From NCBI RefSeq assembly GCF_003334315.1, contig NZ_QOWR01000016.1: a stretch of DNA of 64,000 nucleotides, one strand, 5' to 3'. The notes under the pieces are model-generated. The model saw only the letters and a list, made by a program, of their open reading frames with translations, was not told the DNA's origin and did not search any database. Each line of letters opens with the position of its first letter. Positions within the stretch are counted from its first letter, which is position 1. Positions 21,310 through 21,867 of the stretch are shown piece by piece. This DNA comes from Escherichia coli. GTDB lineage: Bacteria > Pseudomonadota > Gammaproteobacteria > Enterobacterales > Enterobacteriaceae. The translations under genes and the position numbers were made by a program.

Positions 21310-21867
21310 TTAATTACCCTTCTTCTGTGCCGGGGTCTGGCCTTTGTTGTTTTTGTCCTGCAGCTGCGACGGCACCAGAACGGTTGTTACGCGCTTGCCT
21401 TTGTCGCTGAAAGCCTGCATTTTCTGCTCTTTCACCAGGTAAGTGATCTTATCGCCCTTAATGTTGCTATCGACCTGCTGCAGATAAGCATTACCCGTCA
21501 GAACGACAAAATCTTTTGCCAGTTCGTAGTGCATCTGGGAAGCGTGACCTTCAACGGGTTTACCGTTGTCCTGCATCTGGTAGAACGTTGCCGGTTTACC
21601 GTAGCCGTCAATCACTTCTTTACCTTGTTCGCCGCCCGGACGGGTAACGACCACTTTGTCGGCATTAATTTTGATGGTGCCCTGGGTGACGATGACATTA
21701 CCGGTAAAGGTAACCACGTTGCCTTGCATATCAAGAGATTGCTGGTCCGATTCAATGTGGATCGGCTGATCAGTGTCTCCGGTTATGGCAAATGCCGGAA
21801 TGCTGGCGGCCAGAAGTGAGCTGGCAAGCACAAGATTAAGGCTGAGTTTGTTTGTTTTGAATTTCAT
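21310..21867 (-). CDS. lptA: periplasmic LPS transport protein LptA
   Basis: Track ORF 21310..21888; ATG 21867 (MKFKTNKLSLNLVLASSLLAAS..., 185 aa) preferred; start lies within lptC 3' end (32-nt overlap). Confidence 0.9.
   Translation of the reverse strand: MKFKTNKLSLNLVLASSLLAASIPAFAITGDTDQPIHIESDQQSLDMQGNVVTFTGNVIVTQGTIKINADKVVVTRPGGEQGKEVIDGYGKPATFYQMQDNGKPVEGHASQMHYELAKDFVVLTGNAYLQQVDSNIKGDKITYLVKEQKMQAFSDKGKRVTTVLVPSQLQDKNNKGQTPAQKKGN

Follow-up and report, generated by a model that had tools for sequence, protein, structure and literature searches.

The locus considered here raises the question of whether the start of lptA within the 3' end of lptC ties the synthesis of LptA to that of LptC, or whether the two genes are simply packed closely together and translated largely independently. 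We analysed a stretch of 64,000 nt of Escherichia coli DNA (the window), which carries on its minus strand the genes yrbG, kdsD, kdsC, lptC, lptA, lptB, rpoN, hpf, ptsN, rapZ and npr, in this order (Table 1). The preliminary description of this DNA had reported that lptA initiates out of frame inside the lptC coding region, and both the sequence and the list of open reading frames agree with this, including the length of 32 nt. The lptA frame is +1 relative to lptC, and the lptA ATG spans lptC codons 182 and 183 (TAT GAA), taking AT from the former and G from the latter.

Table 1. Positions of the features discussed in the text (window coordinates).
Feature	Position	Strand	Description	Source
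kdsC CDS	22408..22974	-		ORF list, RefSeq annotation
lptC CDS	21836..22411	-	191 aa; ATG 22411; TAA 21838..21836	ORF list, RefSeq, full-length PDB matches
Match to the sigmaE consensus	21928..21955	-	GGAACAA-N16-TCTGA, within lptC; candidate lptAp1	pattern search
Conserved block AGCTGATTGAAAAGGT	21879..21894	-	lptC codons 173-178, -27 to -12 of the lptA ATG; putative ribosome-binding region with SD-like AAGG
Alternative in-frame TTG	21886..21888	-	would give a 192-aa precursor and a 53-nt overlap; not a conserved start
lptC/lptA overlap	21836..21867	-	LptC residues 182-191 (YEIQNKQTQP) and stop; LptA residues 1-10 (MKFKTNKLSL) and two bases of codon 11	sequence, ORF list
lptA CDS from ATG 21867	21310..21867	-	185-aa precursor	ORF list, RefSeq
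Longest lptA ORF	21310..21888	-	begins at TTG	ORF list
LptA signal-peptide coding region	21787..21867	-	27 codons, MKFKTNKLSLNLVLASSLLAASIPAFA; predicted cleavage after AFA	alignment of homologue N-termini
lptB CDS	20578..21303	-	6 nt 3' of the lptA stop	ORF list, RefSeq
rapZ CDS	17278..18132	-		ORF list, RefSeq
npr CDS	17009..17281	-		ORF list, RefSeq

The overlap had been read correctly, and it is known, published and annotated. A 32-nt lptC/lptA overlap in E. coli has already been stated (PMC4986956), the pair is listed at -32 in the K-12 distance table in the supplement of PMC10666635, and the identical overlap is found in the K-12 genes lptC (yrbK) and lptA (yhbN) studied by the Polissi/Deho laboratory and annotated in RefSeq. 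The K-12 locus shares with the window the order yrbG-kdsD-kdsC-lptC-lptA-lptB, the published promoters lptAp1 (sigmaE) and lptAp2 inside lptC agree as well, and we see no essential difference between the two systems, the window being another E. coli strain. All 5426 complete E. coli genomes searched contain the 1.3 kb around the junction, 5417 of them with at least 99% identity and the best matches at 100%, and the limits of both coding regions are identical in the RefSeq annotation of a strain that matches positions 21200..22500 at 100%. What our analysis adds is mildly new and confined to comparative points, namely an invariant block in lptC codons 173-178, the position of the ATG on the last residue of the LptC fold, and an asymmetry of the substitutions in the shared bases.

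Both products are real proteins. LptC matches Pfam family PF06835 (LptC) and, at full length, PDB entries 6s8n_C and 3my2_A, and LptA matches PF03968 (LptD_N) and PDB entry 2r19. A chance overlap of open reading frames was rejected on the basis of these families and solved structures and because the arrangement is found in 80 of 80 Enterobacteriaceae sequences. lptC and lptA are thus a co-directional overlapping pair, on the same strand, in different frames and conserved, and no other annotated overlap in the 64-kb window exceeds 8 nt.

The comparison with relatives was based on a sample of 80 loci from different Enterobacteriaceae species, 79 of which were used for the junction together with a near-identical E. 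coli record. A first alignment of 30 LptA sequences was too divergent for the locus search and a closer alignment gave only Enterobacteriaceae; more distant relatives were therefore chosen and retrieved singly. Within the 80 Enterobacteriaceae sequences the overlap measures 32 nt in 75, 20 nt in three and 17 nt in two. Further away, the lptC-lptA distance is -20 in Grimontia (Vibrionaceae), -14 in Aeromonas with the RefSeq start that gives a 175-aa protein (-29 with the start chosen by the gene caller), and -8, -14, -20, -23 and -35 in other gammaproteobacterial contigs, and three lineages have gaps of +5, +14 and +88 in place of an overlap. In six of the eight overlapping distant relatives the ATG is again set in an xAT-GAA of lptC, encoding Tyr-Glu or Asn-Glu; in one relative (L090) the ATG picked by the caller lies within CAT-GCG. 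This range fits the published distribution for the COG pair LptC@LptA, which has a median of -14 with quartiles of -23 and +1 (n = 364) in Table S4 of PMC10666635 and which, in the part of that table considered here, ranks within about the ten most negative medians. The same extreme tail, within that part of the table, holds TssF/TssG of type VI secretion (median -37) and EcfA/EcfA' (median -15), and the main text of that paper does not discuss LptC@LptA. The -32 of E. coli is longer than the family median, and relatives span -35 to +88. In an AT-rich relative (L094:1440..1520) the called lptC is cut to 159 aa, and the frame appears to be broken at an A10 stretch. The junction TTCAAAAGGTTAAAACTTCATATGAAA, which resembles that of E. 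coli, and the overlapping tail in the lptC frame are still legible there, and a pseudogene or an assembly error is possible.

The reading of the overlap depends on which codon starts lptA, and the evidence supports ATG 21867 over the alternatives, as the preliminary description had assumed. This ATG is invariant in 80 of 80 Enterobacteriaceae sequences, it is the start used by RefSeq and by most database entries (184-185 aa), and in the alignment of distant LptA homologues the N-termini begin within a few residues of M1. Long overlaps often reflect mis-called starts, and more than 80% of overlapping pairs share less than 30 bp, so that one might suspect an annotation artefact in which lptA starts 3' of the lptC stop and does not overlap it, for example at the in-frame GTG 21831 (codon 13), 4 nt past that stop. 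We regard this as barely conceivable: codon 13 of LptA encodes V, M, I, A or L in different species and is not a conserved start, initiation there would drop the positively charged n-region (K2, K4, K7) required by a Sec signal peptide, and neither the invariance of ATG 21867 nor the homologue N-termini that line up with M1 would be accounted for.

A start further upstream, at TTG 21888, had been mentioned as an alternative that would extend the overlap to 53 nt, and this figure is arithmetically right (21888-21836+1 = 53). A real or additional start at this codon, with a 192-aa precursor and a 34-residue signal peptide, appears very unlikely to us, although the TTG opens the longest ORF, is found at -21 in 80 of 80 sequences within the invariant block, and is matched by two database entries (P0007 and P0107) that begin LptA at the equivalent codon. 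Six of the 80 species have GTG in place of GTT, a change that leaves LptC unaltered but places a TGA in the lptA frame between the two candidate codons; LptA cannot begin at the TTG in these species, and the TTG is not a conserved start. The codons between TTG and ATG have lptC wobble sites that are free to vary, the GAG upstream of the TTG pairs only weakly with the anti-SD (-2.2 kcal/mol) and varies as GAG, AAG or CAG, and RefSeq as well as the homologue alignment side with the ATG. Minor use of the TTG in E. coli itself is possible, as the mature protein would be unchanged. N-terminal sequencing of LptA, which had been suggested as a check, cannot separate the two codons, because both starts lie in the cleaved signal peptide. 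Evidence on the start codon was also sought in the supplements of the TRAINSPOTTER N-terminomics and INRI-seq studies, from which lptA is absent.

With the ATG at 21867, the overlap encodes only the tail that follows the last strand of LptC and the n-region of the signal peptide that is cleaved from LptA. In the AF2 model of LptC (mean pLDDT 87) the last beta-strand comprises residues 171-182, residues 183-191 are coil and residues 188-191 have a pLDDT below 50; according to this model, the lptA start codon sits on Tyr182, the last residue of the final strand, and Glu183, the first residue of the tail. Only nine columns are invariant in an LptC alignment that reaches down to relatives with 20-40% identity; Tyr182 is among them, and it is retained also in relatives without an lptC/lptA overlap. 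LptC ends 4-5 residues earlier in five species. On the LptA side, the sequence of residues 1-27 fits a Sec-type signal peptide, with the n-region MKFKTNK, the core LSLNLVLASSLLAASIP and AFA, followed by ITGD, and the chains of E. coli LptA deposited in the PDB lack this peptide, with residue 27-29 as their first. The first residue of mature LptA (21784..21786, minus strand) is Ile (ITGD) in the window and Val (VTGD) in the E. coli entries P0001 and P0002, of which the former has a 12-residue internal duplication and the latter a frameshifted C-terminus.

Frequent substitutions in the shared bases are synonymous for lptC and non-synonymous for lptA. Changes of ATT to ATC, CAA to CAG, AAC to AAT and CCT to CCG in lptC correspond to F3S (27 of 80 sequences), K4R (32 of 80), T5I (27 of 80) and L10R (10 of 80) in LptA, respectively. 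Of the 80 sequences, 70 have an identical LptC tail (YEIQNKQTQP), and 29 agree in the first ten residues of LptA. This substitution pattern and the identity of the tail indicate that the lptC frame is the more protected of the two: selection protects lptC in the shared bases, and changes are absorbed by the disposable n-region of the LptA signal peptide.

A stronger constraint is found just upstream of the ATG. The block AGCTGATTGAAAAGGT is invariant or near-invariant in the 80 Enterobacteriaceae sequences, five wobble positions included. The mean entropy of lptC wobble positions falls from 1.32 bits in codons 8-150 to 0.89 in codons 151-166 and 0.43 in codons 167-191 (Mann-Whitney p = 8e-11). 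The lowest 7-codon wobble window, with 0.079 bits, lies at 21895..21875 (-28 to -8 of the lptA ATG), a value reached in 2 of 20000 permutations, and the window 21894..21874 ranks second among all 21-nt windows of a 5.5-kb alignment from kdsD to hpf. The window-minimum permutation and the rank test were used in place of a run-length test on invariant wobble sites, which was uninformative. In the same scan the start regions of rpoN and lptC rank high too. The top-ranked 21-mer consists of the SD and ATG of hpf (19067..19087, minus strand), and another very conserved 21-mer (20575..20595, minus strand) comprises the lptB stop and the sequence just 5' of rpoN.

The simplest reading of AGCTGATTGAAAAGGT is that it is part of the lptA initiation signal, that is, a putative ribosome-binding region. 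It contains an SD-like AAGG at -16 to -13, 11-12 nt from the ATG, whose pairing is weak (-3.4 kcal/mol). The block could also serve another purpose, as a promoter element, an sRNA site or a protein site. In a more specific version, the block and the suppressed synonymous change in the last ~75 nt of lptC would together form a dedicated cis-regulatory RNA element, such as a ribosome standby site or the target of an sRNA or protein; we consider this improbable, and if true, it would provide a control of LptA synthesis relative to LptC that does not depend on transcription.

We propose, with a probability of about 0.72, that ATG 21867 is the true and conserved start, that the 32-nt overlap is a stable, tolerated form of packing, and that the lptA initiation region is embedded in the 3' end of lptC, where ribosomes would load mostly de novo. 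The invariant block with its SD-like AAGG, the ATG and the AAA second codon would provide the initiation region, and the internal promoters would lie further upstream in lptC. Ribosomes would most likely load de novo on the long mRNA of the operon as well as on the shorter transcripts initiated within lptC, and ribosomes that end lptC translation 29 nt downstream may give slight help, which would not be required.

The preliminary description had instead read the overlap as a sign of tight translational coupling, and this interpretation is not supported for lptC/lptA in view of the -32 geometry, the internal promoters, the conserved block and the lack of a structure hiding the start. In such a model, ribosomes terminating at the lptC stop would shift back by about 29 nt to reach ATG 21867 and LptA output would be locked to that of LptC. 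The weak and distant SD of lptA would suit a start that is helped by translation from upstream, LptC and LptA belong to one complex, and genes for subunits of a common complex are enriched among overlapping pairs (PMC10666635), and the overlap has persisted across long evolutionary distances. There is also a precedent in phage fr, in which the coat/lysis overlap has a similar length (34 nt) and the downstream start likewise lies 5' of the upstream stop; ribosomes can get to this start, 34 nt 5' of the stop, once they have terminated (cited in PMC10666635), and the phage pair is the basis of the post-termination scanning model. However, the lysis start of phage fr depends on nearby termination, whereas lptA is also expressed from transcripts that lack the lptC start: those from the promoters inside lptC supply lptAB all the same (PMC4986956). 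In native E. coli gene pairs, reinitiation is down by 40-80% at a separation of 14 nt between stop and start and nearly gone by ~20-38 nt (PMC10666635), and the -32 of lptC/lptA is outside the range of -8 to +10 that is taken as predictive of termination-reinitiation coupling (PMC10666635). Plasmid-borne lptA alone supports delta-lptCA cells that carry lptF suppressors, with a possible contribution of vector translation signals, the length of the overlap is not constant among relatives, ranging from 32 to 8 nt or giving way to a gap, and the strongly conserved block 5' of the ATG resembles an independent initiation signal. Locked output of this kind therefore seems unlikely to us.

Transcription from within lptC has been described. 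Two minor promoters, the sigmaE-dependent lptAp1 and lptAp2, are located within lptC upstream of lptA, and they alone drive lptAB once the operon promoter is cut off (PMC4986956); a validated sigmaE promoter upstream of yhbG is mentioned in PMC1312014. Coordinates for lptAp1 and lptAp2 were sought in the 2012 sigmaE promoter paper, the sigmaE tagRNA-seq paper and the Cappable-seq supplements, which do not mention lptA. In the window, a search with a sigmaE pattern (a GGAACTT-like -35, a spacer of ~16 nt and a TCTGA- or TCAAA-like -10) gave four matches, with 0.8 expected. The one within lptC (Table 1) is, judged by its sequence, a good candidate for lptAp1; its GGAAC is kept in 33 of 80 sequences and its TCTGA in 10 of 80. 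Among the other three, a strong match, GGAACTTCAGGGTAAAATGACTATCAAA, lies at 36362..36389 on the plus strand, ~145 nt 5' of the greA start (36533), and two lie within ftsH (39758..39784, plus strand, and 40224..40252, minus strand). A sigma70 promoter scan of 21200..22500 found none.

No stable structure that would hide the lptA ribosome-binding site or start codon was found. The fold around the lptA start has a minimum free energy of -27.9 kcal/mol, compared with a mean of -26.0 kcal/mol for shuffled sequences (z = -0.68), and an Rfam search of 20400..23100 gave no match. A hairpin seen by eye, with GCUGA/UCAGC and UUGAA/UUCAA as its stems, was rejected, as many species break the stems without compensation.

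The remaining junctions differ from lptC/lptA. As had been described, kdsC/lptC and rapZ/npr share an ATGA (22411..22408 and 17281..17278, respectively, both on the minus strand). A continuous chain of coupled overlaps across the block, as also proposed, is not seen, since most junctions from yrbG to npr are gaps. According to the K-12 table in the supplement of PMC10666635, the distances are +13 for yrbG-kdsD, +20 for kdsD-kdsC, -4 for kdsC-lptC, -32 for lptC-lptA, +6 for lptA-lptB, +47 for lptB-rpoN, +22 for rpoN-hpf, +45 for ptsN-rapZ and -4 for rapZ-npr, and the window coordinates give +117 for hpf-ptsN. Gaps thus make up six of the nine junctions in the table, in addition to hpf-ptsN, and range from +6 to +117 nt. 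The kdsC/lptC distance of -4 and the lptA-lptB spacing of +6 are each found in 77 of 78 Enterobacteriaceae loci, and the COG pair for kdsC/lptC has a median of -4 (PMC10666635). In one locus (L026) kdsC-lptC was parsed automatically as -26 and not -4, and the choice of the lptC start may be wrong there.

Both kdsC/lptC and rapZ/npr fall within the range of -8 to +10 and belong exactly to the class of -4 (ATGA) and -1 reinitiation overlaps, for which termination-reinitiation coupling has been shown at -4 in other native gene pairs of E. coli (PMC10666635); the npr start has almost no SD. By analogy with this class, coupling is plausible at these two ordinary -4 overlaps. In contrast, lptC/lptA has a distance of -32 and its own conserved upstream block.

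The value of the lptC/lptA overlap is mainly practical, and what it adds to biology is small. Any change made to the 3' end of lptC, be it a deletion, a tag or recoded bases, would hit the lptA start, its probable ribosome-binding region and the internal promoters. Because the lptC 3' end carries these lptA signals, clean lptC alleles need a separately supplied lptA, as in published strain constructions. Gene callers that favour the longest ORF, or that penalise long overlaps, can also be tested on this pair; the two database entries that start at the TTG-equivalent codon indicate that gene callers can be misled at lptA.

Several short overlaps are found elsewhere in the window. elbB/mtgA overlap by 4 nt (-4, 15438..15441), mlaC/mlaB by a single nucleotide (-1, 27991), folP/glmM by 8 nt (-8, 41178..41185), rbfA/truB by one (-1, near 52.4 kb) and yrbN/deaD by eight (-8, near 57.4 kb), and mtgA and yrbL have a convergent 4-nt overlap (16163..16166). 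The window also contains an intact ORF of 254 aa (3307..4071, minus strand), which its closest match annotates as a DUF1120 gene. The window thus comes from a close relative of strain CP53 that lacks the insertion present there; in CP53 this gene is interrupted by a 777-bp IS1 with a 9-bp target duplication.
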